Shown: positions 1-20,000, counted from the first letter of the stretch. The stretch: DNA of 20,000 nt from Thermoplasmatota archaeon (GCA_034660695.1 JAYEJS010000128.1:1-20000), one strand, 5' to 3'. Notes: generated by a model from the letters alone, not told the origin. A program made the numbers and translations.

Positions 1-79
1 CAATTTTTTTCTTCGAGGGACCTTTTCTGGCAGTCTTTGCTTTGCCCGTTTTGGTTTCCCCCTTCTTAGTTGCGCCCAT
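1..79 (-). CDS. N-terminal fragment of a small Lys/Ala-rich basic protein, truncated by the window edge; possibly a ribosomal protein
   Basis: Minus-strand ATG at 79-77 reads MGATKKGETKTGKAKTARKGPSKKKI, open to the window edge. Confidence 0.35.
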   Translation of the reverse strand, partial: MGATKKGETKTGKAKTARKGPSKKKI

Positions 80-303
80 AATAAAGAATTGTATAAAAAT
101 TGTTCTATATAAAAATTACTGATGGCAATCACAATGCGTGGTCTTGAGAAACCACAATACAGGAAAGGAAATGAATGAGAACATGAGGACATATTACAAT
201 TTCATAAGGGGGCATAGTGCATTGAACGGAAAAACACCGTCAGAGATGGCAGGGATTGGCTTAAATCTTGGAAGGAATAGATGGTTTGGATTGATTGAGC
301 GAG

Positions 304-699
304 CTATCTAACTGGTATGATGGATATTTTAGTACAGTTTCCAATCAATACTATATATAATCCCTGCCATTTGAAAAATCCATTGAAACCATAAATTTCC
401 GCTCTCGAACCCGCCCATCCACCAAAAAGATTAAACTCTTGTATTCCATTTTCATCTTCTACAATGAAAATTCCCGGAAGGAACGGGTATCTATAACTCA
501 AATCGATTTTTTCTTCATCAAAATCTCTCACATAATATACATTAGAGATTATGAAAAGTGCGGCATTGTAATATGTTCTGTCGCCATAATTTGTCTGTGG
601 TAGTATTGATACCTTTTTATCATTACTATCAGCGATTGATACCATCGCTGTGCTTAAAAGGATGCCAATGATGCAGGCAACCAGTATGTTTTTTCTCAT
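304..699 (-). CDS. Hypothetical secreted protein
   Basis: ORF 304..756; internal start MRKNILVACIIGILLSTAMVSIADS looks like a signal peptide. No recognised family. Confidence 0.5.
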   Translation of the reverse strand: MRKNILVACIIGILLSTAMVSIADSNDKKVSILPQTNYGDRTYYNAALFIISNVYYVRDFDEEKIDLSYRYPFLPGIFIVEDENGIQEFNLFGGWAGSRAEIYGFNGFFKWQGLYIVLIGNCTKISIIPVR

Positions 700-895
700 A
701 CTCCTTCTTCCGATATTACTTAATTTCTGCATTAAAAGAAATAAATAAAAATTCATTTATAAAACTATTCATCACATTACATAATCACCTACGACTCGAA
801 TGTAATACCCAACTAAAAATCATGGAAAAGCCCCGTATTTGACAGCCACCATTCATGCCTCGAATTTATTGACAGAACTGCCTTGTCCTCACCAC

Positions 896-910
896 AATTT
901 TTATAAATAC
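896..910 (+). promoter_or_regulatory. Probable rRNA operon promoter (TATA box)
   Basis: ATTTTTATAAATACT upstream of the 16S processing stem, typical archaeal TATA box. Confidence 0.55.
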
Positions 911-1059
911 TGGTTGTATTATCATAATTGTAGGCCCAAGTTCATTCGGTTGCCCTCTGAGCTTTTGCTATGAAGGGAGTTTTGTCCATCTTGGGCTAAA
1001 TGACATGGAGATTTGAGAACTCCGCATAGAGCGTGCTCTCTCAAATCTGACACACGCAT

Positions 1060-1083
1060 TGGCACAATGGTGATGTTTGGTCG
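1060..1083 (+). other. 5' strand of 16S precursor processing stem
   Basis: TGGCACAATGGTGATGTTTGGTCG pairs with CGACCAAACGCCAAATTTGTGCCA (2641-2664): 9 bp GTTTGGTCG/CGACCAAAC plus outer TGGCACAA/TTGTGCCA. Confidence 0.75.
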
Positions 1084-1112
1084 GTTAATATACGTGACCA
1101 TTTCCTAGCACA

Positions 1113-2630
<1,518 letters not shown>

Positions 2631-2674
2631 CGTTTATTTTCGACCAAACGCCAAATTTGTGCCAGTGCAAAGAT

Positions 2675-2767
2675 GGGCCGGTAGATCAGTGGAAGATCGC
2701 CTGCTTTGCAAGCAGGAGGCCATGGGTTCAAATGCTGGGCATCCGGCAGAATATCCCATCCGGTCCA
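2675..2767 (+). tRNA. tRNA-Ala (anticodon TGC), with an intron-like T-loop insertion
   Basis: Acceptor GGGCCGG/CCGGTCC, anticodon arm CCTGC-TTTGCAA-GCAGG, T-stem ATGGG/CCCAT interrupted by 21 nt. Lies in the 16S-23S spacer, a common euryarchaeal arrangement. Confidence 0.93.
2733..2753 (+). other. Putative intron in tRNA-Ala, nominal position 59/60
   Basis: ATGGGTTCAAA^TGCTGGGCATCCGGCAGAATA^TCCCAT; inner helix GCTGG/CCGGC, TTC/GAA central pairs, 3-nt bulges AAT and TAT. Removal gives a 7-nt T-loop TTCAAAT. Confidence 0.8.
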
Positions 2768-2845
2768 TTCCACGCCAGTTGGTCTGTACAGTATCAATTG
2801 GTATGGACTGAGAAATGGCATGAGCTGCCGTTTCCGTGAAGTCAT

Positions 2846-2859
2846 GCATATGCAACCTG
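2846..2859 (+). other. 5' strand of 23S precursor processing stem
   Basis: GCATATGCAACCTG pairs with CAGGTTGCGTATGC (5787-5800); inner GAGCTGCA (2871-2878)/TGCAGCTC (5771-5778). Confidence 0.75.
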
Positions 2860-2872
2860 GACGTAAAAAAGA

Positions 2873-5776
<2,904 letters not shown>

Positions 5777-5805
5777 TCTCGTTAAACAGGTTGCGTATGC
5801 TTTAT

Positions 5806-6030
5806 GGGCTTGATGGTCATAGCAGCAGGGAAACACCCGGTCTCATCCCGAACCCGGAAGTTAAGCCTGCTACGTGCTATTGAGTACTATGGTGCGCGAG
5901 CCCATGGGAGAGATACCCTGAAAAGGGCCCGGGTCTATGGCTTAGGCGGAGAGCCCTGTTGTCCTTCGGGACTTCGGTGTAAACTCTGCTGTTTGAAGGC
6001 TATAGATCCTCGGTTTGCTATCAAGCCCTT
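5806..6030 (+). rRNA. 5S ribosomal RNA with a ~93-nt internal insertion
   Basis: Core TCATAGCAGCAGGGAAACACCCGGTCTCATCCCGAACCCGGAAGTTAAGCC...GAGTACTATGGTGCGCGAGCCCATGGGA. Helix I 5' strand GGGCTTGATGGT pairs over 12 bp only with GCTATCAAGCCC at 6017-6028. Confidence 0.8.
5911..6003 (+). other. Structured insertion within 5S rRNA
   Basis: Lies between ...CCCATGGGAG and AGATCCTCGG...; contains CCCU-GAAA-AGGG and GUCC-UUCG-GGAC hairpins; AGAT occurs at both edges so the boundary can slide. Confidence 0.65.
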
Positions 6031-6048
6031 CTTTTCATTTTTTGATTA
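6029..6048 (+). terminator. T-rich terminator of the rRNA operon
   Basis: TTCTTTTCATTTTTTGATTA immediately after the 5S 3' strand; the same tract follows all three downstream 5S-tail copies. Confidence 0.5.
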
Positions 6049-6132
6049 TTTTACACTTATATTTCTATGTCAACAATTTTGTTCATCAAAAACAGTATAA
6101 AGACGGATTGCATTATATTATTGGCGGAAAAA

Positions 6133-6777
6133 ATGAAAGGAAAAACAGCAATAGCATTGCTGATGGCTGGACTGTTCATCCTGCCAATTACAATGGGGCT
6201 ATTAGTAAACGCGATGCATTGGCCAGGTGAACCAAACGAATTGCAACCGCCATACCACTATCCAAAAAATATAGGGGATATCATCGCCGCTGAATGCCAC
6301 TGGCAAAAGAAAATAGGTCAAAACCGATGGGACCATGCTCTTATATACGTTGGAGAACTTGGAGATGATGATTGTGTAGAAGCCGATCCCCACATGGAAT
6401 ATGGATTCCCACAATATCTGTGGAAAGGCAAAGTTGAATACACGAGTATAAATAAGACACGCGACGATTATAGATGGGGGCATGCCCAAGCAGAAGTGGA
6501 CACAAGTCAGTCTATCAGGGATCATGCTGTAGAATTTGCAAAGGATAGAGCAGATCAGGAGAGGAAATTTGATTTCAGCTCCTCTGGTAATAGCAAACAA
6601 ATAGACGGTCCAACTTGGCTTCCAGCAGGCAAGTACTATTGCACCGAGATAGTATGGGCAGGCTATGCAGATGGAGGGAAAGACCTAGATCCAGGTTTGT
6701 ACAATCCCGTTTGGGTGGAGGAACTCATCTACCACAGCGATGTTGATATATACTGGCAGTGGGGTGGTCCTGACTAG
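6133..6777 (+). CDS. Secreted permuted papain-fold / YiiX-like (NlpC/P60 superfamily) candidate
   Basis: Signal-like MKGKTAIALLMAGLFILPITMG; motifs WDHALIYVG...CVEADP and YYCTEIVWAGY...LDPG. Start taken at 6133, not 6067, because upstream codons are in the duplicated leader. Confidence 0.6.
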   Translation: MKGKTAIALLMAGLFILPITMGLLVNAMHWPGEPNELQPPYHYPKNIGDIIAAECHWQKKIGQNRWDHALIYVGELGDDDCVEADPHMEYGFPQYLWKGKVEYTSINKTRDDYRWGHAQAEVDTSQSIRDHAVEFAKDRADQERKFDFSSSGNSKQIDGPTWLPAGKYYCTEIVWAGYADGGKDLDPGLYNPVWVEELIYHSDVDIYWQWGGPD

Positions 6778-6844
6778 TCATGCAGCAAGCTTTCAAGGTA
6801 GCTCTGCCCTCTTTCTTTTATTTTTTCTAAACAGCAAAAACTAA

Positions 6845-8401
6845 ATGACAAAAAGGGGTAGAATGAAAAGAGAAATGATAAAGAAAGTTGTTATCATCCC
6901 AATAATTCTTATTCCTATACTAGTAATGGTTTCTTCATCGATGAATTTACAGGAGGGAAAAGAAAATGTTAACGAAGAATGGAACAAAACATTTGGAGGA
7001 AACTATAACGATAAAGCAGAATGGGTTGTACAAACAAATGATGGGGGGTATATTATTGCCGGATACACTGGTTCTTATGGAGCTGGAGACCTTGATTCGT
7101 GGATCATAAAGACTGATCCAAATGGAAATGAAATATGGAATAAATCATTTGGAGGAAAAAAAGAAGATGTTGCATACTGCGTTAGAGAGGTGAATGACGG
7201 AGGATATGTAGTTACAGGATACTCCCGTTCTTTTGGAAATGGAAGGGAAGATGTCTGGCTAATAAAAACAGATGAAAATGGAAATGAGGAATGGAATAAA
7301 ACATTTGGAGGAAAAGAAGGAGAATATGCATTATCTGTGATACAAGCAAAAGATGGTGGATATGTTATTGTAGGGAATACTGAATCTTATGGAGCTGGAG
7401 ATAAAGATATATGGCTAATAAAAACAGATGAAAATGGAAATGAGGAATGGAATAAAACATTTGGAGGAAGAGCTACAGAATTTGGAAATTACGTTATACA
7501 AACAAGAGATGGAAGATACGTTGTTGGAGGAGAAACTGAATCTTATGGTCATGGGAAATTAGATATATGGCTAATAAAAACAGATGAAAATGGAAATGAG
7601 GAATGGAATAAAACATTTGGAGGAAGTAGTATGGACAGAGGAGAGGACGTTATCCAAACAAAAGATGGTGGCTATGCGATTACTGGAGAATCAAGACCTC
7701 ATATAACGGTATGGGATGATGTCTTTCTCATAAAAACCAGTGAAAATGGAAATATGGAATGGATTAAGTCATTTGAAGGAATACATCAGGATCTCGGATA
7801 TTCCATCATCCAGACAAACGATGGATACCTAATTGGAGGAACGACACATTCTTATGGTGCTTCAGCTTTAGCAAATTTCAAGGCTTGGTTGATAAAAACA
7901 GATAAAGGTGGAAACGAGCAATGGAACAAAACATTTGGTAAAAGAGGAAGGGAATCAGCAGATTGTATCATACAAGCTAGCGATGGTAGCTACATATTTG
8001 TTGGAGGTACTGATAGTTATGGTGCTGGAAAGGAAGATGCATGGTTAGTAAAATGCCAGGATTATCCTCCTCCAAAAATAAAAATTGTGAAGCCAAGAAA
8101 AGGATGGCTTTACATATTTGATAGAAAAATAATTCCAATTGGAAAAACGATAATTTTAGGAGGAATTACAGTAAAAGTTGAGGGTTACGATTCTGAAGAA
8201 AAGATAAATAGAGTTGAATTTTATCTAGATACTCCAGAGGCTTATGAAAGAGAACCTAGAGCAATTATTTACGAACCTCCATATGAATGGAAATGGGATG
8301 AGCCAGCAATTGGCCCTTGCTTAATAACATCTGCAGCTTATTATGGTAATACCGAAGCTCATGCGGCCGATATAATAAATTTATGGATATTCAACATCTA
8401 A
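6845..8401 (+). CDS. Secreted ~52-aa tandem-repeat (probable beta-propeller) protein with C-terminal Ig-like domain
   Basis: About seven repeats of E-W-N-K-T/S-F-G-G...SYGAGDxDxWLIKTDENGNE; C-terminal PRKGWLYIFDRKIIPIGKTIILGGITVKVEGYDSEEKINRVEFYLD. Confidence 0.8.
   Translation: MTKRGRMKREMIKKVVIIPIILIPILVMVSSSMNLQEGKENVNEEWNKTFGGNYNDKAEWVVQTNDGGYIIAGYTGSYGAGDLDSWIIKTDPNGNEIWNKSFGGKKEDVAYCVREVNDGGYVVTGYSRSFGNGREDVWLIKTDENGNEEWNKTFGGKEGEYALSVIQAKDGGYVIVGNTESYGAGDKDIWLIKTDENGNEEWNKTFGGRATEFGNYVIQTRDGRYVVGGETESYGHGKLDIWLIKTDENGNEEWNKTFGGSSMDRGEDVIQTKDGGYAITGESRPHITVWDDVFLIKTSENGNMEWIKSFEGIHQDLGYSIIQTNDGYLIGGTTHSYGASALANFKAWLIKTDKGGNEQWNKTFGKRGRESADCIIQASDGSYIFVGGTDSYGAGKEDAWLVKCQDYPPPKIKIVKPRKGWLYIFDRKIIPIGKTIILGGITVKVEGYDSEEKINRVEFYLDTPEAYEREPRAIIYEPPYEWKWDEPAIGPCLITSAAYYGNTEAHAADIINLWIFNI
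7257..7627 (+). repeat. 156-bp tandem coding repeats
   Basis: ggctaataaaaacagatgaaaatggaaatgaggaatggaataaaacatttggagga occurs identically starting at 7257, 7413 and 7569. Confidence 0.85.
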
Positions 8402-8433
8402 TATACCTCTTATTTCTTGGTTTTATATAGGTA

Positions 8434-8666
8434 GAGCCCATGGGAGAGATACCCTGAAAAGGGCCCGGGTCTATGGCTTAGGCGGAGAGCCCTGTTGTCC
8501 TTCGGGACTTCGGTGTAAACTCTGCTGTTTGAAGGCTATAGATCCTTGGTTTGCTATCAAGCCCTTCTTTTCATTTTTTGATTATTTTACACTTATATTT
8601 CTATGTCAACAATTTTGTTCATCAAAAACAGTATAAAGACGGATTGCATTATATTATTGGCGGAAA
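8434..8666 (+). repeat. 233-bp direct repeat, copy 2: truncated 5S tail + terminator + leader
   Basis: 232/233 identical to 5898..6130; lacks the first ~92 nt of 5S. Confidence 0.97.
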
Positions 8667-8667
8667 G

Positions 8668-9351
8668 ATGAAAAGAAAATATAAAACAATAGGTGTGTTG
8701 GTGGTGGTAGGGGTATTTGTTATACCGATGATGCCAGTAAAAGCTTGGACTCCTCCGGATGATGCAAGAGACATCGTTGTTACAGAATGCAAAGGAATTA
8801 GAGATCTGCCAGGTGAATTAGATCATACTGCAATATACGCTGGCAGTAACGAGATATTAGAAGCAGATCCACGTTTCGAGAAATGGAAACCATGGGAAAG
8901 ATGGCTTTATCCAACAAATCATAGGCGATTACATCAAAAATCATATTCTGGCAATGAAAACTATGGAAGAGCCGAAAGAGACGAGTTAGATGAATTATTT
9001 AATCCAAAATATTACAGCATACAAATATACCTAAGGGTACCGGATGCATACTCTGTTTTACCAGATATCGTTGATTTTGCACAAGATAAGGCGGATCGCA
9101 AATGGGTAGTAGGAGGAATACCAAATAAATCGAGGCCATTTGATTATATATCTTTTTGGAGTGAATACACAAAACAGGTAGACAACCCCAATGACCCGAA
9201 TTCTCTTGGATTTGGATATTATTGCTCAGAGCTAACATGGGCTGCATATAAATCAAAGGACTTCAACTTAGATCCCAATGGCAATGAAGTCAGACCGCAA
9301 GACATTTATGATAGCGATATAACTGAGGAATATAGAAGATACACAACATAA
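8668..9351 (+). CDS. Second secreted YiiX-like / permuted papain-fold candidate
   Basis: Signal-like MKRKYKTIGVLVVVGVFVIPMMPVKA; LDHTAIYAGSNEILEADP and YYCSELTWAAYKSKDFNLDP match motifs of the 6133..6777 product. Confidence 0.6.
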   Translation: MKRKYKTIGVLVVVGVFVIPMMPVKAWTPPDDARDIVVTECKGIRDLPGELDHTAIYAGSNEILEADPRFEKWKPWERWLYPTNHRRLHQKSYSGNENYGRAERDELDELFNPKYYSIQIYLRVPDAYSVLPDIVDFAQDKADRKWVVGGIPNKSRPFDYISFWSEYTKQVDNPNDPNSLGFGYYCSELTWAAYKSKDFNLDPNGNEVRPQDIYDSDITEEYRRYTT

Positions 9352-9389
9352 ATTAAAATCCTCTTTCTTATTTATTTTTATTTTTAAAA

Positions 9390-10912
9390 ATGAAAAAGAA
9401 AATGAAAAAAATAATAATTTCTCTTTGTATCGGAGTATTTGTAGTACTCATTCCGTCAATATCATTCAATTTAACTAAAGATTTAACTAAAGAGGAAGAC
9501 GAAGAATGGAATAAAATATATGGGGAAAGCTTTGCTGAAGCATATGACATTGAACAAACAAGTGATGGACATTTCATTATTGCAGGGCACACTAAAAATT
9601 GGACTGCATGGCTTCTAAAAATAGATAAACAAGGAAATGAAATATGGAATAAAACATATGGAGAAGGAATATTTTATAGCATTGTTGAGACAGAAAGTGG
9701 ATATACCATAGGCGGATATACTGAATCACGTGGAGCAGGAAAAGGAGACTTTTGGCTTGTTAAAGTGGATAAACAAGGAAATGAAATATGGAATAAAACA
9801 TATGGGGAGGGAAATATGGAATCGGTAAGAAAGGTTATATCAACAAAAGATAGATACCTTATGGTTGGAATAAAAAGGTATCCGCCTAGAGAGGATGGAT
9901 ACAGCGATTCTAATATTTGGCTTGTTAAAGTGGATAAACAAGGAAATGAAATATGGAATAAAACATATGGAGGGAATTGGACAGAAGATGGACAAGACAT
10001 TATAGAAATAGAAGATGGGTATTTAGTCTCAGGAAGAACATATTCATATGAAAAATATGGGGGGTGGGACACTTGGCTAATTAAAATAGATAAACAAGGA
10101 AATGAAATATGGAATAAAACATATGGATGGTGGGATTTCGAAACGGAAGCTTACATAATTGAAATAGAAGATGGTTACATGATTACGGGATCCACTCTTT
10201 CTACTTATGTAGGATTTTGCGTTGGGTATCTAATAAAAGTAAATAAGGCTGGGGAAGAAATATGGAGTAAAAAATATGGATATAAAGCAGAGAAATTTCG
10301 AGATATTTAAAAAATAGAAAATGGATATATTTTAGTAGGGCTTACTGAGGGATATGGTGTAGGAGATTTTGATGCTTGGCTTTTAAAAATAGATGAGGAA
10401 GGAAATGAAATATGGAATAAATCATTTGGAGGAAGAGGAAGAGATCGTGCTTATTCAATAGAAATAAAAAACGATAATTATTTTATTGTTGGAGAAAAAA
10501 TAGAAATGCATGGATTATAAAATGTGCTGATTATCTCCCACCTAAAATAAAAATAGTTAGACCAAAGGAAAATTATCTGTATATTTTTGATAGAGAAATA
10601 ATGCCATTTAACAAAACAATGGCACTCGGGAGCATCACTATAATTGCTGAAGTTTATAATCCTATAAATGGTACAATAAAAAGAGTAGAATTTTATCTTA
10701 CTTTTTCAGGGAGAAAATATGAATACGAGCCAAGAACAGTTTTATATTCTCCTCCATATGAATGGAAATTTGATGTGCAAACGATCTCGTTGTTCAGGCC
10801 AGTGGAAATTACCACTGCTGCCTACTATGAAAATGCAGGAGGAGTAGCAGTAGATAAAAAAGAGGTTTATATTATAAAGTTGGCGGCTTCTGTCTCTACC
10901 TTGCATTCATAA
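9390..10912 (+). pseudogene. Degraded secreted repeat protein, paralogue of 6845..8401
   Basis: 9390..10310 ends in in-frame TAA, after which the same frame continues KIENGYILVGLTEGYGVGDFDAWLLKIDEEGNEIWNKSFGG; a shift near 10520 is needed to reach KCADYLPPKIKIVRPKENYLYIFDREIMPFNKTMALGSITIIAEVYNP. Confidence 0.8.
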
Positions 10913-10948
10913 GGTTTGCTATCAAGCCCTTCTTTTCATTTTTTGATT
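10913..10948 (+). repeat. 5S-tail/terminator remnant, copy 3 (36 bp)
   Basis: GGTTTGCTATCAAGCCCTTCTTTTCATTTTTTGATT identical to 6012..6047. Confidence 0.93.
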
Positions 10949-11004
10949 TATTAGCTCGAAAATGATATAGAAAGCAATAAAAACCGTCGGGCATTTATTC
11001 TAAT

Positions 11005-11193
11005 ATGAGTATTGAAGTTGAAATAAAGGACATGAAACAGCGTTTAGCTGAAATTTCAGATAAGCTGGATGAACTACTGCAGGAAAAGGAAACCATTTCA
11101 ATTATGAAACTGTCAGAAAAATCTTTATCTAAATTCTTTAATAACGAACCAGACATTTACAAAATAGAAGATTTAAAGGTAAGATACAAATGA
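11005..11193 (+). CDS. Putative antitoxin partner
   Basis: 62-aa ORF MSIEVEIKDMKQRLAEISDKLDELLQEKE..., overlaps the downstream toxin-like ORF by 4 nt. Confidence 0.55.
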   Translation: MSIEVEIKDMKQRLAEISDKLDELLQEKETISIMKLSEKSLSKFFNNEPDIYKIEDLKVRYK

Positions 11194-11519
11194 AAGGAAA
11201 ATTTGTTTTGATTCCATTTCCATTCACTGATTTAGCTATCGCAAAATTAAGACCGGCACTGGTAATCCACGAAGAAAAGAAAGATGTCATTGTTGCATTT
11301 ATATCCTCAAGAATTCCATCGGAGATATCCATTACAGATGTGGTTATAACCGCTGAACATCATGCCTTCAAAAGAACTGGTTTAAAGGTTGATTCTGTTA
11401 TAAAACTTGACAAAGTTGCAACCGTGTTAAAAGATTTAATTGTTGGTGAGCTAGGAGAGGTGGATGAAACTTTGCGAAAAGAAATAAATGAGAAATTGAG
11501 AAAGATATTCACAATTTGA
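11190..11519 (+). CDS. PemK/MazF-family toxin-like protein
   Basis: MKGKFVLIPFPFTDLAIAKLRPALVIHEEKKDVIVAFISSRI...DSVIKLDKVATVLKDLIVGELGEV matches the PFPFTD...K.RPALV and D.iK.dki.tv features of the family. Confidence 0.85.
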   Translation: MKGKFVLIPFPFTDLAIAKLRPALVIHEEKKDVIVAFISSRIPSEISITDVVITAEHHAFKRTGLKVDSVIKLDKVATVLKDLIVGELGEVDETLRKEINEKLRKIFTI

Positions 11520-11546
11520 AGTCATTTTTTCAACTCAAAAGTAATA

Positions 11547-11572
11547 TGCTATCAAGCCCTTCTTTTCATTTT
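11547..11572 (+). repeat. 5S-tail/terminator remnant, copy 4 (26 bp)
   Basis: TGCTATCAAGCCCTTCTTTTCATTTT identical to the segment beginning at 6016. Confidence 0.9.
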
Positions 11573-11674
11573 ATGTTTTTCGTATTTTTATTGTCCTATT
11601 TTTGTTGTTCTCCCAGAACAATTTTGTCGGTAGAAATCAATATACCCCCCCGCATTACATTATTGGTGAGAAAA

Positions 11675-11830
11675 ATGAAAACGGAGCAGGGCGGAAATTT
11701 AGAAAAGGAACCTAACCCTGCGGGTCAAAAAGGAGGGAAAATGCCGAAAATAAGAAGAGCATGCCCGAAAGGTGGAATTCCGACTGAGGCGCTATATAAA
11801 TATCGGAAAAACAAAAAGGGGGAAAGATAA
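11675..11830 (+). CDS. 51-aa basic companion protein of the putative RiPP cluster
   Basis: MKTEQGGNLEKEPNPAGQKGGKMPKIRRACPKGGIPTEALYKYRKNKKGER; GGTGAG upstream of ATG; stop codon 1 nt before the precursor ATG. Confidence 0.55.
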   Translation: MKTEQGGNLEKEPNPAGQKGGKMPKIRRACPKGGIPTEALYKYRKNKKGER

Positions 11831-11831
11831 A

Positions 11832-11993
11832 ATGCCAATGGAAGAACCCATATATGAAGACACCGCGACCCCTGGCTGCGGCGAAGGTTTACTCTTCTTC
11901 TGTGGACTCGACGAACAATATTTCTGTTCCGGCCTTTTATTCAATTTTTGGTGTAGTGTGCCACAACGCCCATTCGTTCTAGCAGTAGAGTAG
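11832..11993 (+). CDS. Putative RiPP precursor peptide (53 aa, four Cys)
   Basis: MPMEEPIYEDTATPGCGEGLLFFCGLDEQYFCSGLLFNFWCSVPQRPFVLAVE; purine-rich GGGGGGAAAG RBS; directly upstream of a PqqD-like/rSAM/SPASM gene. Confidence 0.7.
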   Translation: MPMEEPIYEDTATPGCGEGLLFFCGLDEQYFCSGLLFNFWCSVPQRPFVLAVE

Positions 11994-12018
11994 TTGCTCC
12001 CTAGCTAGAAGGAACTAC
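11990..12018 (+). promoter_or_regulatory. Stem-loop between precursor and maturase genes
   Basis: GTAGTT...CC...GG-AACTAC hairpin beginning at the precursor stop codon. Confidence 0.35.
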
Positions 12019-12079
12019 TATAACCTCCGGAAATCAGACAACGATTTAGTTAGACTATTAACTAGGAGATGTATTCCAG

Positions 12080-13450
12080 ATGTATCCAACGTTAGAAAAA
12101 AACATTGAGTTAAGGTTTCAACCAACAGAAGCAGAGGTAATAAATAGAGGGAAGTTAAACTTCACGGCGGTTAACGATGTTGGGGCGGAAATCCTTGCGA
12201 GTTGCGATGGGAAAACTCCTATTGATGAAATATGTAGGAGAATGGCCCAGAGACACGATGACACCGTTAGAAGGGTGAAACCGATTATTTTAAGGTTCCT
12301 AGAAAAGGCAGAGAAAAGAGGACATGTCTCCTTTCATGACATATCTCAAGATCATTGTGGCACTATCTCAGGCAGCCGAAAGTATTTTACGCCAATACAG
12401 GCGTCTGTAGAGCTTACTATGGCATGCAATCTTAAATGCAGACATTGCTACGCGAATTCGGGGACATCAAAATCCAACGAGCTCTCTACGGAAGAATTTT
12501 TAGATATCTTTAGCAAGCTTTACAAAGTAGGCGTTGTTAGAGTGACTCTTACGGGCGGAGAACCTTTGCTTCACAATGATCTTCCCGAAATCCTAGAATT
12601 TTGCTTCAAAAAATTTCATTTGCAATTACTGACAAACGGTATTGGCGTTACCGAAAAAATAGCAAGACAATTATCTAGGTATATAGTCACTACACAACTC
12701 AGTTTGGACGGAGATAACTCGAAAACACATGACTACATGAGGGGAAAGAAGGGGGTCTTCGAAAAAACCATTAAAGCGATTAAAATACTAGTCAGACATA
12801 GAGTACCCACAGTTGTTGCCATGTCGGTAACACCATTCAATATAGACCAAATTGAGGGATGTCTTCATCTTGCGCTAGATCTAGGGGTTGCAGGATTCAG
12901 GGTAGGGGGTTTAACCCCAACTGGAAGAGCAAAGGATCTTGGATGGGAATTAAATGAAGAAGAATATAACGGGGTAAGGAAAACCAGGAGGAAACTTGCG
13001 AATAAATACAAAGACCAAATTTGGGTAGAATCGGAGGAAAGCTTAATTACCGGGGAAGAACGGACTGAAAAATCAAATGATAGGAGGAAAATAACTGTTG
13101 AGACAAAAGATAAGCCAAGGAAAATTAAACCGAGAAATTGTGGCGCAGGTTATAGAATGTTAGTGATATCTCCTACTGGAGAGGTTAGACCATGCCCTAT
13201 TATAAGCGACGAAAGATTGGTTATTGGAAATATAAAGAACGAGGGCATCAAAAATATCTTAAATCATAGAATAGCAAAAACCTTGCCGGAAGTCATTGCT
13301 CCAATCAAAGAAATCTGTGGCGAATGCAAGTATTTTTATAGATGCGAAGGCTGCATAGGTACTGGCTTAGTACAATGTACGGAAATAGAAGATTGCAACT
13401 GGGCAAAAAAAGAATTAAGAAAATTACCAAAAGTTCAAGGGAAGTTTTAA
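12080..13450 (+). CDS. Radical SAM/SPASM peptide maturase with N-terminal PqqD-like domain
   Basis: PqqD-like LNFTAVNDVGAEILASCDGKTPIDEICRRMAQRHD; CNLKCRHCY motif; C-terminal Cys set CGAGYRMLVISPTGEVRPCP...CGECKYFYRCEGCIGTG...C...C. Confidence 0.88.
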   Translation: MYPTLEKNIELRFQPTEAEVINRGKLNFTAVNDVGAEILASCDGKTPIDEICRRMAQRHDDTVRRVKPIILRFLEKAEKRGHVSFHDISQDHCGTISGSRKYFTPIQASVELTMACNLKCRHCYANSGTSKSNELSTEEFLDIFSKLYKVGVVRVTLTGGEPLLHNDLPEILEFCFKKFHLQLLTNGIGVTEKIARQLSRYIVTTQLSLDGDNSKTHDYMRGKKGVFEKTIKAIKILVRHRVPTVVAMSVTPFNIDQIEGCLHLALDLGVAGFRVGGLTPTGRAKDLGWELNEEEYNGVRKTRRKLANKYKDQIWVESEESLITGEERTEKSNDRRKITVETKDKPRKIKPRNCGAGYRMLVISPTGEVRPCPIISDERLVIGNIKNEGIKNILNHRIAKTLPEVIAPIKEICGECKYFYRCEGCIGTGLVQCTEIEDCNWAKKELRKLPKVQGKF

Positions 13451-13484
13451 AAAGTTGTATGCGTTGGAAAGAAACATGGATAAG

Positions 13485-14880
13485 ATGAAGAAGTTAATGA
13501 AGATGATAGCCATTCCGATGGTGATACTATTATTATCTGCAAGCAGCATGACAAATATAGCTTGCAACGTAAAAATTAATCATCAGCTTCAACAATCAAT
13601 CGATGAAGTCGTACTTCAAACCAATTTCAAGCCTCATGTTGTTGTAGCTATGATAGATTCTGGCATAAATGTTTACCACGAGATATTCAGAAGAGAAGAT
13701 ATGGTGCAGCACCCTTCTACATATATTGGAGGATTTCCGGAAGATGCAGAGGCAATCAATTTAACTTTTGGTGATGATTGGGAAAGCAACTATGAGAATG
13801 ATAAGGAAATATGGGAAAACCTTGAAGAAAAAAAATTATACTGGTTTCCGCATACAAATATCATTGGCATATCCTTTGGGCAGTCAACTTGGTATGGAAG
13901 AGAAGAGCCTGGAGATCCTATTTTAGATGATGTTGGCCATGGAACAAGTACATCTTCTATTATAGAAAAAATAAATCCTAATGTAACAATTTTGATGGTT
14001 GAAACGGGAGGAAATAAACTGAAAGAGGCTTTGTCGTGGACAGTAAATCGGTCATGGATTGATATTATTGTTCCCGAGTTTGGTGTCTGGTATCGTCCAC
14101 GCATGCTTTTCTGGACAACAATTTGGTGGTCTGGCTTTCAAGAAATTTCCAAAAGAGGAGTGAAAAATGGAAAAATAATTGTTACAGCCGCTGGCAACAG
14201 ACCATGGATAATCCCAGAGCTTTCTTACATATCCGGACCACCATGGGTTATTTCCGTTGGAGGAGCAGAAGGATATTGTCATGGAATAGACTTATCGACA
14301 GCCAAAAGTGCTGACTACGTTTCAACATTTACGAGAAAAATTGCATTTCATTTTAATACATCAACATACTGGGTGGGGTCAGGAACAAGTTTATCTATTC
14401 CGACGGTAGCAGGTACGCTATCTTCAATCATTTTAAAGATAAGAGAGGAATTGAATGAATTATACCTATGGAATAAGGAATGGGGCATTGATTGATGTCC
14501 CAGAAGAAGGAATTCATATTACAAACTGGGATATAAGGAATACACTAAACCATACTGCCACCTATTGGAACACAAGTGATTGGAGTTTTTATGACTGGAT
14601 ATTTAAATGGCCATGTAGAAATGCAATTGATCCTTATACTGGTGAACCTGTTTCTTTATGGCTCAAAATTTTATTGAGGATAGTGACTGCAAATATCCCT
14701 GTAAACCCAGTTGCTCCTTGGCTACAAATGAGTTGGGGATTTGTGAATGAAAGCATAGTAAATGATACAATAGATGTTTTACTCGGCAAAAAAGAAATGC
14801 CGGAGAAACCAGAAGGGGCAATAAGATATATGGAAGCCATCTATAAAATTCGAGAAATGATTTGGAGAAGTTATTCATGA
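13485..14880 (+). CDS. Subtilisin-like (S8) serine protease with signal peptide, apparently frameshifted near 14455-14495
   Basis: Asp AMIDSGIN, His DVGHGTSTSS, Ser GSGTSLSIPTVAGT. ORF 13455..14495 overlaps 14455..14880, whose GIHITNWDIRNTLNHTA resembles the helix following the catalytic Ser. Confidence 0.75.
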
Positions 14881-14947
14881 TGGACAACATCGTACTATGC
14901 GGAATGAGCAATGATCAAAGAAATTTGTCGAGGTGAATTAAGAAACG

Positions 14948-15934
14948 ATGTCAGCGATCATAACCACTGATTTAATAAAGAAATACAAAACCTCCTTTTC
15001 CCTTAAAAAACTCTTAGGAAAAAGAGATTTTATCCAGGAGACAGTAGCATTGAATGGCCTTTCATTTTCGGTTGGTGAAGGAGAAATCTACGGGATTTTA
15101 GGTCCAAATGGAGCTGGTAAAACCACTTTAATCAAAGTCTTAGCAACGATATTGTTGCCAGATGGTGGGGATGTTGAAATCCTTGGCTATAAGTTGCCTA
15201 GAGATGAAAAGAAAGTGAAAGATTTAATTGGTTTAAGCCTTGGGGAATATGAAAGAACATTCCAATGGAGGATAACTGGGAAACAAAATTTAGAATTCTT
15301 TGCAGCATTATTTGGCACACCGAAAAACTCTGTAAAAGATAAGATAGATGAGGTTTTATCTCTAGTTGGCTTAGAAGATAAAGCAGACACGTTGTTTTTG
15401 GAATATTCCACCGGCATGAAACACAAGCTAGCTATTGCTAGAGCATTACTTAATGATCCAGAGGTATTGCTCTTCGATGAACCAACAGCTGGTCTAGATG
15501 CTAAAACATCAAGAGAGGTTGGTAATTTTATAAGAACATTAACAAAAAATGGTACAACCATTATCTATACGACCCATCGCCTAGAAGAAGCTGGGAATCT
15601 CTGTGATAGAATTTTAATTTTAAATCAGGGGAAAAAGGTTGCGGAAGAGAGCCCAACCAATTTGAAAAAACTTGCTAGTGAAACAGAGGTTTTGCAAATA
15701 GAATTGAATGAGGTTAACGATTTATTGTTAGAGCAAATCCAAAATCTAGATGGAATTAAGGATGTTTACCTGACCGGCCCAAGGATAATAAGAATTCATT
15801 GTAACCAAATAAACGGGTCGATATATTCAATTTTGGATTTGATAAAATCAAAAGACGTAAAGATAAACCAAATATATTCTTTCACGCCATCCGTACAGGA
15901 TGCATTCCTAAAATTGACTGGTGAAGAAAAATGA
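14948..15934 (+). CDS. ABC transporter ATP-binding protein (exporter type)
   Basis: Walker A GPNGAGKTT, signature region STGMKHKLAIARAL, Walker B EVLLFDEPTAGLD. Confidence 0.95.
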   Translation: MSAIITTDLIKKYKTSFSLKKLLGKRDFIQETVALNGLSFSVGEGEIYGILGPNGAGKTTLIKVLATILLPDGGDVEILGYKLPRDEKKVKDLIGLSLGEYERTFQWRITGKQNLEFFAALFGTPKNSVKDKIDEVLSLVGLEDKADTLFLEYSTGMKHKLAIARALLNDPEVLLFDEPTAGLDAKTSREVGNFIRTLTKNGTTIIYTTHRLEEAGNLCDRILILNQGKKVAEESPTNLKKLASETEVLQIELNEVNDLLLEQIQNLDGIKDVYLTGPRIIRIHCNQINGSIYSILDLIKSKDVKINQIYSFTPSVQDAFLKLTGEEK

Positions 15935-16941
15935 AAAAGTTAATATTAATTTCTTTAGGTATCGAAATACCAATCTTTATCATGGTCTTGCTGTCAATAG
16001 CCTTGAACTACAATCCACAAGATTTCATATCGATCGCTCCTTATATTTTGCCGTTTATACTAATTTTCTCGTCTTTAACATTGATATGGTTTTTAATGGG
16101 AAAAAGTGGCTCTTTTCGGGTAACATATGCATTTATTAAAAGAAGGTTTCAAGTTTTCACATCTTACAAGTTTCAAATAATATTTACTATTTTTAATATC
16201 TTTTTAATGGTCATCATTTTTTATATTGTTGGCAAGCCTTTCGTAGAGATAATGTTTGCTTCTATGTCTGGTGGATTGCTAAATTATGGTGGATACGATT
16301 TTCTTACCTTCATCATCGTGGGCATGATAGCATGGCCCATGCTTTTGTCTGGCTACAGTATTGCCTCGCGTAAGATAAGACAGGAGCAATATACCGGTAT
16401 GTTCGAAATAATGATTCCAACAAAATATGGGGTGAAAGTTTTGCCATTTGCCTCCTTATTGACAGGAACATTAAGCTCTATCACAATGACGATATCTAGT
16501 TTGTTAGTCATAATTTTTCTCTTGCATGTCGACCTAAAATTAGGTAATCCCCTTGCTTTATTGGGATTAATCAGCATTATAATCCTCTCTCTTCTGACTA
16601 TGTGGGAACTGGGCTTAATATTTGGTGGATTGACGGCGATTTATAAACAACTTGGACCAGTTAGCTCAATCCTCCAAACAATAATGATGTTTTTTTGTGG
16701 GATTTACATCCCAGTACAAATATTGCCAGCTTATATTAAGCCATTATCTTATGCCCTTCCTTTGACATACGCCTTTAGAGCTATCAGGGCAAGTATGATA
16801 AGTGGGCAGGGTATAATGGATTACTTGTGGGATGTGATCGTCCTATTTATTTTCTGCGTTATAATGGTTATAGGCGGATACATAGTGTTTACTAAACTTC
16901 TGGACAAAGCCAGGAAATATGGAACAGTTTATGGCTATTGA
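15931..16941 (+). CDS. ABC-2 type transporter permease
   Basis: Multiple hydrophobic spans, 4-nt overlap with the ATPase gene, YALPLTYAFRAIRASMISG near the C terminus as in ABC-2 permeases. Confidence 0.88.
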   Translation: MKKLILISLGIEIPIFIMVLLSIALNYNPQDFISIAPYILPFILIFSSLTLIWFLMGKSGSFRVTYAFIKRRFQVFTSYKFQIIFTIFNIFLMVIIFYIVGKPFVEIMFASMSGGLLNYGGYDFLTFIIVGMIAWPMLLSGYSIASRKIRQEQYTGMFEIMIPTKYGVKVLPFASLLTGTLSSITMTISSLLVIIFLLHVDLKLGNPLALLGLISIIILSLLTMWELGLIFGGLTAIYKQLGPVSSILQTIMMFFCGIYIPVQILPAYIKPLSYALPLTYAFRAIRASMISGQGIMDYLWDVIVLFIFCVIMVIGGYIVFTKLLDKARKYGTVYGY

Positions 16942-17347
16942 AGTGCTTCTCTTACGTGTATAATTTTTTCATTTTGCCAAGGTGATGTAGGATAGAGGGT
17001 AGAAAGTCGGTAGAAGAACCTTCATTCCCTGAGAGAGAAGGTAGCCATTTTCTTGATTTCTACCACCCATGCTACACCGCCTAACCTCTGGGTAACAAGG
17101 TTTATAAATCAGTGAAATATCGATATATGTTGAAAAATACGGATAAACTTTACGAAGGATCGGAAACAGGTTTGCTGCCCGCGATTTAATCCCGAACCAT
17201 GAGATGAAAAAGAGATTACCTGGTGGGATAAATTGTCCCTCAAAGACTAGGTAAGATGTTTCCTTCACATTCCAGTTGGTTTCGGCAAAACTATAAGAAA
17301 AAGAGGTACAGTCGGCTCAAACGACCCGTGAACCCGAGAGCACAGGG

Positions 17348-17960
17348 GAGCCAACAACAACCTGTCATATACACCCAGAAGAGCCAACTGGTAATAATGC
17401 CTGGTATGTGAGTGATATTACAATAACATTAACTGCAACTGATGAGGTAAGCGGTGTAGACCGGTGTAGACTATACACTGTATAGACTTGATAATGGAGC
17501 ATGGCAGGCATATACAGGGCCATTTGTTGTTGATGGCGATGGAATACATAGCATTCAATACTATTCAGTTGACAATGTAGGGAATAAAGAGGATATAAAA
17601 GAAGAGCGGGTGCGAATGAATATTTGTGGATCAGAGATAACTGTCTCAAAGCCAATGAGCTATCTTTTCATCTTCGATAGAGCAATCATGCCATTGCCTG
17701 GAGACAAGCCATTGATTATTGGAAGAGCAACAATAATAGCAACCTTTGCGGATGTCGCTACTTCAGGAGTTGACAGTGCTGAGTTATATATTGATGATGA
17801 ACTCAAAACAAGCTTTGTGAGCGGAGTTGAGTATACATTGAATGAAAGGTTGCTCGGCGACCATACCATTAAAATTGTTGCTTATGACAAAGCAGGCAAT
17901 AAGGCAGTGAAAGAAATACGAGCGACGATATACAATTTGAATATATTCAAAGACTTCTAA
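17348..17960 (+). pseudogene. Remnant of secreted protein with OmpL47-like/Ig-like domains
   Basis: EPTTTCHIHPEEPTGNNAWYVSDITITLTATDEVSGVD, frameshift, then YRLDNGAWQAYTGPFVVDGDGIHSIQYYSVDNVGNKEDIK...SYLFIFDRAIMPLPGDKPLIIGRATIIATF. No start codon in the 5' part. Confidence 0.75.
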
Positions 17961-18028
17961 CCCTCCTCCCTCCTTTCCCATCTTTTATTCACCAAATATT
18001 TTATAACATGGATTTCATTTAGTATGCA

Positions 18029-18721
18029 ATGGAGCTTTTTGTGATACTTGTGGAGCCCAAATATTCTGGCAATGTGGGTGCGGTGGCAAGAGTGATGATG
18101 AACTTTGGTTTTCGCAATCTTATCATTGTTTCACCATCGTTTTCCGTCGACAATGACGACTGCAGAAAAATGGCTGTCCATGCCCAGGATATTTTAGATA
18201 ACGCTGTCATCCTCGACAGTTTCGGAGAAGCGTTGAAACATGTGGACTATATGGTCGGCACCTCTTCCATCGACAGCAAGAATGAAAAGCACCATCTCAG
18301 AAATGCTTTGCCGCTGAAAGAATTTTCGTCAGAGGTATATAGGATGGAAGGCGCTGTAGGCATAGCTTTCGGAAGAGAAGATTACGGATTATTCAATGAA
18401 GAACTCAAACAATGCGATGTCATGCTGAAAATACCTACCTCGGATGCCTATCCCAGCCTGAATCTGTCCCATGCTGCAGGTGTTGTTTTATACGAACTGT
18501 TTTCCCAAAGAAGAGAATTCGAACAGCCCAGGCTTGCCGACAGGATAGAAAAAGAAAAGTTGTATGAATACTTCGACAAATTGCTTGAGAGCATAAACTA
18601 TCCCGACCACAAAAAAGAAAATACCAAGGTAATGTTCCGCCGCATCATTGGACGAGCAATGCTCTCCAAGTGGGAATACCACACCCTTATGGGCGTTTTT
18701 AAAAAATCAAGGACTAAATAG
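18029..18721 (+). CDS. trmJ: SpoU/TrmJ-family RNA 2'-O-methyltransferase
   Basis: ILVEPKYSGNVGAVARVMMNFGF, VGIAFGREDYGLFNEELKQCD and IPTSDAYPSLNLSHAAGVVLYEL are the three SPOUT motifs. Confidence 0.92.
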   Translation: MELFVILVEPKYSGNVGAVARVMMNFGFRNLIIVSPSFSVDNDDCRKMAVHAQDILDNAVILDSFGEALKHVDYMVGTSSIDSKNEKHHLRNALPLKEFSSEVYRMEGAVGIAFGREDYGLFNEELKQCDVMLKIPTSDAYPSLNLSHAAGVVLYELFSQRREFEQPRLADRIEKEKLYEYFDKLLESINYPDHKKENTKVMFRRIIGRAMLSKWEYHTLMGVFKKSRTK

Positions 18722-18956
18722 TTTCAAGTGAAAACATAACATCCATTCCTTTCAGGGCGGTGTGGATCTTATCCGCGAGCCATAGAAGCGCCTCCACGTC
18801 TGGCTCTTCATTCCATTCGTAAACGAAGTCATAGTTCCCTCTCGAAGCTTTCAATCCTAGCTCCATCAAGCGGTTCCTAACCTCTGAGGGCAATGCTTTT
18901 GAATATTGATATGAATAGATTATCTTGTGGAACATTAGGAACCTTTCCAAATTCAC
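18714..18956 (-). CDS. Conserved-looking small hypothetical protein
   Basis: 80-aa ORF MNLERFLMFHKIIYSYQYSKALPSEVRNRLMELGLKASRG..., converges on trmJ with 8-bp overlap. Confidence 0.5.
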   Translation of the reverse strand: MNLERFLMFHKIIYSYQYSKALPSEVRNRLMELGLKASRGNYDFVYEWNEEPDVEALLWLADKIHTALKGMDVMFSLETI

Positions 18957-19111
18957 AAAGTTTTCATACTCAGGGTCAACCTTCTGCTTTTTTTTGCATT
19001 TTATTCATTCTTGCAAAAATCTGTGTAATGATAGAAAAAGATGCAGAGATGGCGTTATTCCCGCGGTTAAAACACTAAATTTTTATTTCAAGACCTTATT
19101 CCTTTCTCGAT

Positions 19112-19195
19112 GCGGGGATGGCCCAGCCTGGCAAGGCGCAGGATTGCTAATCCTGTGATCTTTTGATCTCGAGGGTTCAAATCCCTCTCCCCGCG
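19112..19195 (+). tRNA. tRNA-Ser (anticodon GCT)
   Basis: Acceptor GCGGGGA/TCCCCGC, anticodon arm GGATTGCTAATCC, long variable arm GTGATCTTTTGATCTC, T-arm GAGGGTTCAAATCCCTC, discriminator G. Confidence 0.93.
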
Positions 19196-19292
19196 CTATT
19201 TTTCTCAATTCACCATCGAGCAGGAGTTGTACCATCTACATACCATGAAGTTGAAGGAATTAAAGAGGCGGTTGGTGAAGGCCTTTTGCAGC

Positions 19293-19988
19293 TCATCTCC
19301 CAAAAACCCACCTCAAAATTTTTTGCAGTATCGATTCTTTCTTTCCAGCCTGGGGTTGGAAAACAGAGGGGGGGACAGGCAGCTCCGGTGCAGGATGTTC
19401 CACAGCACTTGTAATGCGGACTTTCATTGTCTTGCTTATTGTACGTGCACCTGTTATGAGCAAATCATTGTTATGATCTACGGCTATGCCGCGCATATAA
19501 TCATCTATAAGGTTGCTTACACGTTCACCAAGAAGCATGTCCATTATTTTGTCTCCCGTGTTCTTACCATATAATGCGGCATAATACTCGTTGACGGATT
19601 CCCTATGGCCGGTTACTGCAATATCTCCATTCTCCATTATGGCTGCACCATAAAGAAAACCTTTTGTCTTCTGTGAGGTTTCCCATAAAATATTAAAGCT
19701 GTAATCAAGTTTTAGCAGATAATGCATTTCCGTGCTATCTTCCGTTTTTCCTGCCACCACAAAATTTCCTTGCTCATCTATTGTTATCCTGATCGGGGCT
19801 TTATTCCCCTTTCGTATAAATTCGCGCTTTTTCCATCCTCGCTTTCCGCCGAACTTTGTTATCATTAAATCAAGATCGTTGCCATAACTGGTAAATCCCG
19901 ATGCCAGGACATCATTGTAAGCATCTACAGTGGCACCGGTATACAGTGCAATTATTCCCTTTCTGCGAATTTTTCTCCACAGAATCAT
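19293..19988 (-). CDS. Probable beta-propeller/SBBP-type repeat protein, possibly truncated at its 5' end
   Basis: DVLASGFTSYGNDLDLMITKFG, RITIDEQGNFVVAGKTEDS, GAAIMENGDIAVTGHRES, GIAVDHNNDLLITGART resemble propeller blades; repeat-like sequence is already present at the annotated N terminus. Confidence 0.55.
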   Translation of the reverse strand: MILWRKIRRKGIIALYTGATVDAYNDVLASGFTSYGNDLDLMITKFGGKRGWKKREFIRKGNKAPIRITIDEQGNFVVAGKTEDSTEMHYLLKLDYSFNILWETSQKTKGFLYGAAIMENGDIAVTGHRESVNEYYAALYGKNTGDKIMDMLLGERVSNLIDDYMRGIAVDHNNDLLITGARTISKTMKVRITSAVEHPAPELPVPPSVFQPQAGKKESILQKILRWVFGR

Positions 19989-20000
19989 GCCGTTTAATTT

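Follow-up and report, generated by a model that had tools for sequence, protein, structure and literature searches.

Background

Integrase-mediated islands are known at transfer RNA (tRNA) and transfer-messenger RNA (tmRNA) genes (Reiter et al. 1989, as cited in PMC2217521); in bacteria, remnants of the 5S ribosomal RNA (rRNA) gene occur downstream of rRNA operons, in some cases as several copies and with the insertions of the expanded gene, and recombination between these remnants and 5S genes has been proposed (Stepanov & Fox 2021, PMC7812874); and in hypervariable region 2 (HVR2) of SAR11, the 23S and 5S genes are recombination anchors for a variable block of cell-surface genes (2007, PMC2217521). 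Here we describe a 20,000-nucleotide stretch of DNA from a Thermoplasmatota archaeon (GCA_034660695.1, JAYEJS010000128.1:1-20000), called the window throughout, in which the 3' end of the 5S rRNA gene, together with its T-rich terminator, recurs as four 'tails' at the borders of protein-coding modules downstream of an rRNA operon. We give about an even chance to the reading that the end of this operon is a homology-driven recombination hot spot, in which a reiterated unit of 5S end plus terminator (and often promoter) undergoes conversion and receives insertions.

The locus resembles tRNA and tmRNA islands in that direct repeats of the 3' end of an RNA gene flank the insert, the functional gene is intact on the proximal side and the inserts stand in tandem; it differs in that the target is a 5S rRNA gene, no integrase was found in the window, and the repeats extend into a promoter and leader. 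The repeats of such islands are scars, whereas one repeat of the present array lies at an ancient orthologous junction and is maintained identical to 5S. With integron cassette arrays the locus shares a fixed proximal site, an array of short modules bounded by a recurring site, and a toxin-antitoxin cassette among the cargo, but the window is without IntI, the upstream neighbour of the array is an rRNA operon, the recurring site is an identical linear sequence without an attC-type hairpin, and the modules have promoter-like units of their own. As among the bacterial 5S remnants, copy 2 of the window is a fragment of the 5S core that lies downstream of the full gene and has the same expansion segment; however, the bacterial remnants are not described as borders of protein-coding modules or with promoter-bearing units (PMC7812874), whereas three of the four window copies have a promoter and leader and two consist of only 13-17 nt of 5S. 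In common with SAR11 HVR2 (PMC2217521), rRNA would anchor homologous recombination and secreted or surface proteins again make up most of the cargo; HVR2 is bordered by two different rRNA genes, with no reiterated rRNA fragment reported, whereas the window reiterates one rRNA end inside the block. A literature search on the 5S tail as an attachment site found nothing relevant.

Four copies of the 5S rRNA tail at module borders

The 26-mer TGCTATCAAGCCCTTCTTTTCATTTT occurs in exactly four copies, all on the plus strand, at positions 6016, 8552, 10917 and 11547 (0 expected by chance in 200 shuffles). The window and 0.7 kb beyond it formed the search space for tail copies and recombinases, and no further copy was found there with up to five mismatches allowed. 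The tails separate a YiiX-like gene and a repeat-protein gene (module A), a second such pair (module B), a toxin-antitoxin cassette and a cluster for a ribosomally synthesized and post-translationally modified peptide (RiPP).

5806..6028, plus strand: 5S rRNA gene, ~223 nt including an expansion segment (folds and alignments)
6016..6041, plus strand: tail copy 1, the last 13 nt of 5S (6016-6028) and a 13-nt T-rich trailer/terminator
8434..8577, plus strand: 5S fragment with tail copy 2 (8552-8577) at its end (alignment to 5S)
10913..10948, plus strand: tail copy 3, the last 17 nt of 5S and the full trailer to TTGATT, immediately 3' of the stop codon of repeat protein B
11547..11572, plus strand: tail copy 4, 26 nt

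Copies 1 and 2 belong to a 246-nt repeat (5898-6143 versus 8434-8679), the first 233 nt of which contain one mismatch (6011, C/T; 99.6% identity), the other five mismatches being confined to 6131-6140; the match of copy 3 to the 5S tail is 36 nt long (10913-10948) and that of copy 4 is 26 nt. The left ends of the copies are variable, retaining 131, 17 and 13 nt of 5S in window copies 2, 3 and 4, respectively, and 23 nt in the copy of a relative designated L033 (see below). The fragment 8434-8564 corresponds to 5S positions ~93-223, whole expansion segment included, and the junction at its left end (8433/8434) is without homology. Copies 3 and 4, with 17 and 13 nt of 5S, are too short to count alone as 5S remnants.

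A preliminary description of this DNA had proposed four copies at these positions, remnants of 233 bp at 99.6%, 36 bp and 26 bp, a tail at every module border, and an origin of the repeated sequence from the 3' strand of 5S plus its terminator. Exact search recovers the same four copies, repeat alignment gives the same lengths, every module border has its tail, and the origin is confirmed by folds of helix I, by compensatory changes and by alignment with the 5S of relatives.

The 5S rRNA gene and its expansion segment

The 26-mer is the 3' strand of helix I of 5S (13 nt) followed by the T-rich trailer. The Rfam call for the 5S gene covers 5809-5926, has a badly paired helix I and ends 90 nt short of the first 26-mer, because a 97-nt expansion segment (5914-6010) causes the 3' end to be misplaced. 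True helix I pairs ~5806-5817 with 6016-6028, as indicated by the minimum free energy (MFE) fold, by consensus folds with two relatives (L038 and L036) and by alignment with three 5S sequences of normal length; compensatory changes in this helix are found among the window, L038 and L036.

1113..5784, plus strand: archaeal rRNA operon, with 16S (1113-2629), a weak spacer tRNA (2678-2746) and 23S (2865-5784) (Rfam gathering hits)
5914..6010 (also 8450-8546), plus strand: 97-nt 5S expansion segment, a short hairpin and a long arm between the loop E side and the 3' strand of helix I (alignment with the normal-length 5S of L033, L035 and L034)

The segment adjoins the three-way junction; apart from this one insertion the 5S core is canonical, and helix I closes across it (alignment with the three normal-length 5S sequences; MFE and consensus folds). 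Homologous segments are present in L038 (~133-240, minus strand) and L036 (~125-230, minus strand), and the 97 nt are absent from the 5S of L033, L035 and L034, one of which is closer to the window than L036 is. Double compensatory changes affect 16 of the 73 predicted pairs, mostly in the long arm, in a comparison of three sequences only (window, L038 and L036), as for an independently folding module that evolution has conserved. The 5S gene and copy 2 have identical expansion segments, their sole mismatch lying just outside, at 6011.

The archaeal cases in a 2021 survey of 5S expansions are only in Halobacteria (PMC7812874). Like the expanded 5S of Halobacteria (Halococcus and others; PMC7812874, PMC7530397), the present gene has an insertion of ~100 nt by the three-way junction, on the loop E side, folded as a short hairpin and a long arm and leaving the 5S core intact; unlike them, it belongs to a phylum unmentioned in the survey and is patchily distributed among relatives, and the likeness is one of position and fold. 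Thermoplasmatota join a very short list of archaea with expanded 5S rRNA, independently of how the recombination is read, and the Rfam call shows that expanded 5S genes have their 3' end misplaced by standard 5S models. The spacer tRNA between 16S and 23S (2678-2746) scores 29.3 bits, just at the Rfam threshold, and received no ARAGORN call.

A promoter and leader shared by most tails

Window copies 1, 2 and 4 and both copies of L033 remain homologous past the tail as far as the start codon, with terminator, TATA box and leader in between. This shared unit (unit H) consists, in order, of a second T-tract, a TATA-like box, the leader GCATTAYATTATTGG, a Shine-Dalgarno sequence and ATGAAA.

6042..6132, plus strand: unit H copy 1, with second T-tract, TATA-like box and leader GCATTATATTATTGG-GGCGGA, up to the ATG of YiiX-like protein A (five-unit alignment, two genomes)
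8578..8667, plus strand: unit H copy 2, the same as copy 1 until 2 nt before the ATG (alignment)
11573..11674, plus strand: diverged H unit, 65% identical to copy 1, with leader GCATTACATTATTGGTGAGAAAA (alignment)

The leader is found at 6110-6132, 8646-8667 and 11652-11674 in the window and at 4538-4516 and 2080-2058 (minus strand) in L033, and within 122 kb of related loci the leader motif occurs after tails only. Copy 4 and both L033 copies have diverged promoter/leader homology for 100-170 nt past the tail; copy 3 alone is a bare core without an H unit. Leader, Shine-Dalgarno sequence and ATGAAA are kept across paralogous units and across genomes ~10% apart in 16S, and the restriction of the leader to tails suggests a functional promoter/leader module.

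Comparison with relatives

The rRNA 3' flanks of five relatives were reached by means of a spurious open reading frame (ORF) inside 23S, used as a protein query.

L033: 85% identical in 23S and 89.8% in partial 16S; normal 5S of 121 nt; then a 218-aa YiiX-like gene, a 555-aa repeat protein and a second tail copy
L038: 90.8% identical in the 3' part of 23S, the closest; homologous 5S expansion segment; 113 nt of downstream sequence
L036: 81.6% identical in the 3' part of 23S; homologous 5S expansion segment; downstream sequence resembles the start of a tRNA gene, by eye
L035: 80.7% identical in the 3' part of 23S; normal 5S; C13 peptidase downstream
L034: 81.0% identical in the 3' part of 23S; normal 5S; convergent oxidoreductase downstream

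The second tail copy of L033 is 35 nt long, 100% identical to the 5S tail of the same genome (AAAGGCGGTATGCTGTCAAGCCCTTCCTTTCATTT), and begins 7 nt after the stop codon of the repeat protein. It is followed by a copy, 76-94% identical, of the promoter, leader, start codon and signal-peptide start, here heading an unrelated 685-aa PKD protein. This PKD gene (3-2057, minus strand) and the YiiX-like gene (3859-4515, minus strand) have promoter, leader and the first ~16 residues in common. The starts of the two genes are 94% identical in DNA over 49 nt and share nothing else; apparently, the 5' unit became joined to a different gene.

In L033, the ortholog of the copy 3 junction lies at 2213-2179. 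Repeat protein B and the second gene of L033 align at their 3' ends up to the stop codon, the tail begins 1-10 nt past the stop in both genomes, and repeat protein B is closer to the L033 protein (53-61% identity) than repeat protein A is (49%), A and B being 40-44% identical to each other. Because of these three features, the repeat-protein/tail junction and the placement of a YiiX-like plus repeat-protein module beside 5S are, as judged from the alignments, ancestral.

Outside the rRNA flanks, a search with the 19-mer GCTATCAAGCCCTTCTTTT in genome and metagenome contig collections that do not hold the source lineage gave only chance matches, in unrelated bacteria. No rRNA operon lies within 10 kb of the SpoU orthologs that are 78% identical (P0005). 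A contig from the same samples (L025, 1-3613) encodes an 87% identical SpoU, preceded not by the RiPP cluster but by a PKD protein and a C13 peptidase; this contig breaks 87 bp upstream of the PKD gene, its start (TTTTTTGACTAC) resembles the 5S trailer (TTTTTTGATTAT), and a 5S gene may lie just upstream. A supposed homology between the sequence downstream of 5S in L038 and the 5' region of the toxin-antitoxin cassette was dropped, the alignment being no better than with other T-rich flanks (z 2.7).

Concerted evolution of the tails

Tail positions 5 and 17 are G and C in both L038 and L033, and A and T in the window, where the A at position 5 is compensated by a C-to-T change in the 5' strand of 5S. 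Both derived bases are present in all four window copies, and the L033 states in both L033 copies. Copies 4 and 1 match at 26 of 26 tail positions, while the next 94 aligned nucleotides are 65% identical; the flanks of both are 57-62% identical to L033, about as far from it as from each other. By our own arithmetic, a 26/26 tail at the divergence of the flanks has a probability of 0.65^26, or ~1e-5. Because an old orthologous junction carries young substitutions specific to 5S, the tail copies are, on this comparison, evolving in concert with the 5S gene, refreshed rather than decaying as scars. We infer that copying runs from 5S to the copies, because the pairing partner of the tail exists only in 5S. 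A generic terminator under sequence selection was considered as an account of the tail and dropped, the trailer differing freely between species.

Probable insertions at the tails

If 630 bp comprising the toxin-antitoxin cassette and one 26-mer are removed, the window becomes collinear with L033 in the order repeat protein, tail, promoter, leader and next gene. As this removal restores collinearity, the cassette was probably inserted into the distal tail, 26 bp being duplicated. The repeats on either side of module A, which hold the lineage-specific expansion segment, are 99.6% identical over 233 nt, and the genes of the module are only 28-44% identical to those of module B. Because such diverged genes sit between such similar repeats, the arrival of module A beside 5S would be recent, after the acquisition of the expansion segment and with a 246-bp duplication; its genes themselves are, by their divergence, ancient paralogs or xenologs.

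No integrase or recombinase domain was detected by Pfam scans of ORFs of at least 50 aa from 6 to 20 kb of the window and of three ORFs beyond it. A 418-aa gene beside tRNA-Ser had been a candidate integrase and was rejected, its product being a beta-propeller repeat protein. The tail contains neither hairpin nor dyad (folding energy of -2 kcal/mol for the 36-mer and for its complement, z -1.1 and -0.7), no inverted repeat in the window involves it, and the 26-mer has no match in 2.9 million viral contigs.

These results alter several parts of the preliminary description. It had likened the array to repeated integration or recombination at the 3' end of a structural RNA gene, as known for tRNA genes. 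RNA-gene 3' ends do flank the inserts and the intact 5S is proximal; the lineage-specific insertions (module A and the toxin-antitoxin cassette) are each flanked by a duplicated tail; the genes downstream of 5S do differ among relatives (L033, L036, L035 and L034); and the observation that no integrase is visible holds for the Pfam scans of window ORFs and of the adjoining 0.7 kb. Not every module arrived at 5S, however: the YiiX-like plus repeat-protein module is ancestral synteny, and the toxin-antitoxin cassette most simply entered a distal tail. Nor do the copies behave like att sites, since both L033 copies and all window copies but copy 3 go on matching beyond the tail, into promoter and leader. 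A decay of the remnants with distance or age, as their falling length might suggest, is not supported either, the orthologous copy 3 junction carrying the derived tail bases of the window.

A proposed recombination hot spot and its alternatives

The favoured reading, recombination guided by homology at the end of the rRNA operon, would work as follows. The unit would have as its core the last 13-17 nt of 5S and the T-rich terminator, mostly extended to TATA box, leader and start codon, such that each module would end in the 5S terminator and most would begin with the common promoter and leader. Gene conversion from the selected 5S gene would keep the copies identical to the resident 5S, and tail-bearing DNA (a circle or an 'ends-in' fragment from such an array) would recombine with a resident tail, whereby a module is inserted and the tail duplicated. 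From an ancestral state of 5S, YiiX-like gene, repeat protein, tail, promoter and next gene, which L033 retains, the window lineage would first have gained the toxin-antitoxin cassette within the distal tail, duplicating 26 bp, and later, after the expansion segment, module A beside 5S, duplicating 246 bp. At least the event that produced copy 2 would have had one illegitimate end, because the 8433/8434 junction is without homology. Recombination guided by sequence identity is preferred over a site-specific enzyme because of the promoter/leader homology, the variable left ends and the concerted evolution, and host homologous recombination, rather than a dedicated recombinase, is the probable agent.

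Local tandem duplication and gene conversion alone, by which the unit and its downstream genes would have been duplicated from inside 5S and have diverged, with deletions fusing units to other genes and with no cassette insertion, is possible if rather doubtful. It draws on the common two-gene architecture of modules A and B, on the third gene of L033, which has the promoter, leader and signal-peptide start of gene 1 and nothing else, on homology that spans the whole intergenic unit, and on the variable left ends of the copies (131, 17 or 13 nt of 5S for the window copies, 23 nt for L033); but it leaves unexplained an unrelated toxin-antitoxin cassette between two perfect 26-mers, and modules A and B, at 28-44% amino acid identity, predate the divergence of window and L033 yet have between them a 99.6%-identical repeat with a lineage-specific segment. 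Because of this disparity between the divergence of A and B and the identity of the repeat, at least one recent event appears to have put old, diverged DNA at a tail. We think it unlikely, although the more exciting prospect, that the 5S tail is the attachment site of a cassette system that is integrase-free or driven by a host recombinase: modules would excise as circles, tail by tail, and re-insert at 5S or at a resident tail, and the secreted-protein, toxin-antitoxin and RiPP modules would form a shufflable, integron-like array anchored on an rRNA gene, its sites re-copied from 5S. Decidedly less credible is site-specific integration by a tyrosine or serine recombinase encoded elsewhere, or by a host Xer-type enzyme, with the 5S tail as attB, modules bearing attP, and 5S regenerated while a partial copy is left behind. 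Direct repeats of an RNA-gene 3' end flanking the inserts, an intact proximal gene, exact 26-mers bounding the toxin-antitoxin cassette, downstream neighbours of 5S that vary among relatives, and G+C content at third codon positions (GC3) that is lower in the 5S-to-SpoU interval (0.22-0.41) than in two core genes (~0.49-0.50) would all agree with it; against these stand a window and adjoining 0.7 kb without a recombinase, a tail without dyad symmetry or hairpin, repeat homology that runs ~100-170 nt past the tail, unlike att cores, a 5S-adjacent module that is syntenic in L033, the lack of viral-contig matches, and a literature search that found no 5S tail as attachment site.

Highly improbable is a derivation of the copies from extra rRNA genes since lost, copy 2 being what a deletion up to 5S position 92 would have spared of a second, tandem rRNA operon (or extra 5S gene) before module B, much as in the bacterial 5S remnants. 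Copy 2 is indeed a true 5S fragment with a complete expansion segment and one mismatch in 233 nt, and concerted evolution between operons would account for identity up to the start codon; but copies 3 and 4 and the L033 copy keep only 13-23 nt, always the extreme 3' end of 5S, the short copies lie at module borders right after stop codons, where independent deletions would not be expected to end repeatedly, and the toxin-antitoxin cassette between two 26-mers is again unexplained. Least probable of all is an artefact in which the assembler of a short-read metagenome-assembled genome (MAG) threaded modules of different strains through shared repeats. The 246-nt repeat does exceed typical k-mers, and the products of modules A and B are found only in the NCBI MAG contig and not in three Logan runs that have the part from toxin-antitoxin cassette to SpoU; however, three independent Logan assemblies also contain copy 4 and the right side of copy 3, the Logan contigs break exactly at the shared 30-mer, as a real repeat would cause them to do, a graph assembler cannot invent the 8433/8434 junction or the junction of repeat protein B stop codon and tail, and L033, from an unrelated project, has the same design. 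Every tested product from the toxin-antitoxin cassette to SpoU (window 10919-20000) is encoded at 100% identity in the Logan assemblies SRR26901924, SRR26901925 and SRR26901928, and in all three the contigs start exactly at the shared 30-mer of the tail. The lack of modules A and B in these assemblies may reflect strain polymorphism upstream of copy 3, or failed assembly.

Several points weigh against the homology-driven reading. Stretches of 26-36 bp are short for efficient homologous recombination. Reiterated tails are found in two genomes only (the window and L033), the others having short downstream sequence or different neighbours, and the closest relative reached, L038, is ~9% divergent in 23S. 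One short-read MAG contig is the source both for the order of the modules across the 246-nt repeat and for the 8433/8434 junction. Of the genes in modules A and B (6133-10912), all five products are recorded only from that NCBI contig and in none of the Logan assemblies that cover the remaining locus. The tail may also owe part of its conservation to selection for a function, though the trailer varies freely between species, and it is possible that a recombinase is encoded elsewhere in the genome, outside the 20-kb window.

If the homology-driven reading is correct, the 3' end of 5S, and not a tRNA gene, would be the recurrent border and probable recombination site of an archaeal accessory array without an element-encoded integrase; a non-coding copy of 26-36 bp would have been kept in step with an rRNA gene over deep divergence, extending concerted evolution from rRNA operons to short satellites; and the locus would offer a simple, homology-based route by which surface-protein, toxin-antitoxin and peptide-natural-product modules are gained and shuffled.

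Contents of the modules

The genes of the window have locus tags from U9O96_06660 onward in the NCBI MAG contig, and the SpoU protein matches an NCBI MAG entry at 100% identity.

6133..6777, plus strand: YiiX-like protein A, 214 aa, with signal peptide (sub-threshold Peptidase_C92 match)
6863..8401, plus strand: repeat protein A, beta-propeller-like, with a 52-aa period (repeat analysis)
8668..9351, plus strand: YiiX-like protein B, 227 aa, 28% identical to A and 30% to L033 gene 1 (protein comparison)
9402..10912, plus strand: repeat protein B, a pseudogene, ortholog of L033 gene 2 at 53-61% amino acid identity (alignment)
10949..11546, plus strand: toxin-antitoxin cassette, antitoxin 11005-11193 and PemK/MazF toxin 11190-11519 (Pfam)
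11675..16941, plus strand: RiPP-type cluster (domain searches)
18029..18721, plus strand: SpoU/TrmJ-like methyltransferase, the first 'core' gene, used as a query for finding relatives

Modules A and B have the same two-gene architecture. Outside the 246-nt repeat their DNA is 40-69% identical in 100-nt windows, and their proteins are 28% (YiiX-like) and 40-44% (repeat proteins) identical. A search of 5.8 billion database proteins for homologs of YiiX-like protein A returned only the query itself, which makes it an orphan there; a sequence search of the PDB with the YiiX-like protein found nothing, and exact-protein look-ups of repeat protein A (from a 518-aa start), of a 150-aa ORF upstream of 16S and of YiiX-like protein B yielded nothing usable. 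Repeat protein B is broken by an in-frame TAA stop (10308-10310) and by a frameshift near 10480-10600, paralog A being intact; its decay is compatible with relaxed selection after the arrival of module A.

The toxin matches PF02452 over its full length (E 4e-14) and is preceded by the small antitoxin ORF, which overlaps its start by 4 nt. The RiPP-type cluster comprises a 51-aa precursor candidate (11675-11830), a radical SAM (rSAM)/SPASM protein with N-terminal PqqD (12080-13450), an S8 peptidase, a 141-aa protein and an ABC-2 transporter. Of the module contents given in the preliminary description, the PemK toxin, the rSAM/SPASM/PqqD protein, the S8 peptidase, the ABC transporter and the pseudogene status of repeat protein B were all recovered, whereas the 'YiiX-like' label corresponds to sub-threshold Peptidase_C92 matches only (E 0.0097 and 0.2). 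GC3 is 0.22-0.41 for the genes between 5S and SpoU (6863-16941) and ~0.49-0.50 for SpoU and the beta-propeller gene (18029-19988); with these two core genes as reference, the lower values are consistent with an accessory island. The 51-aa ORF of the RiPP-type cluster is headed by the diverged H unit.

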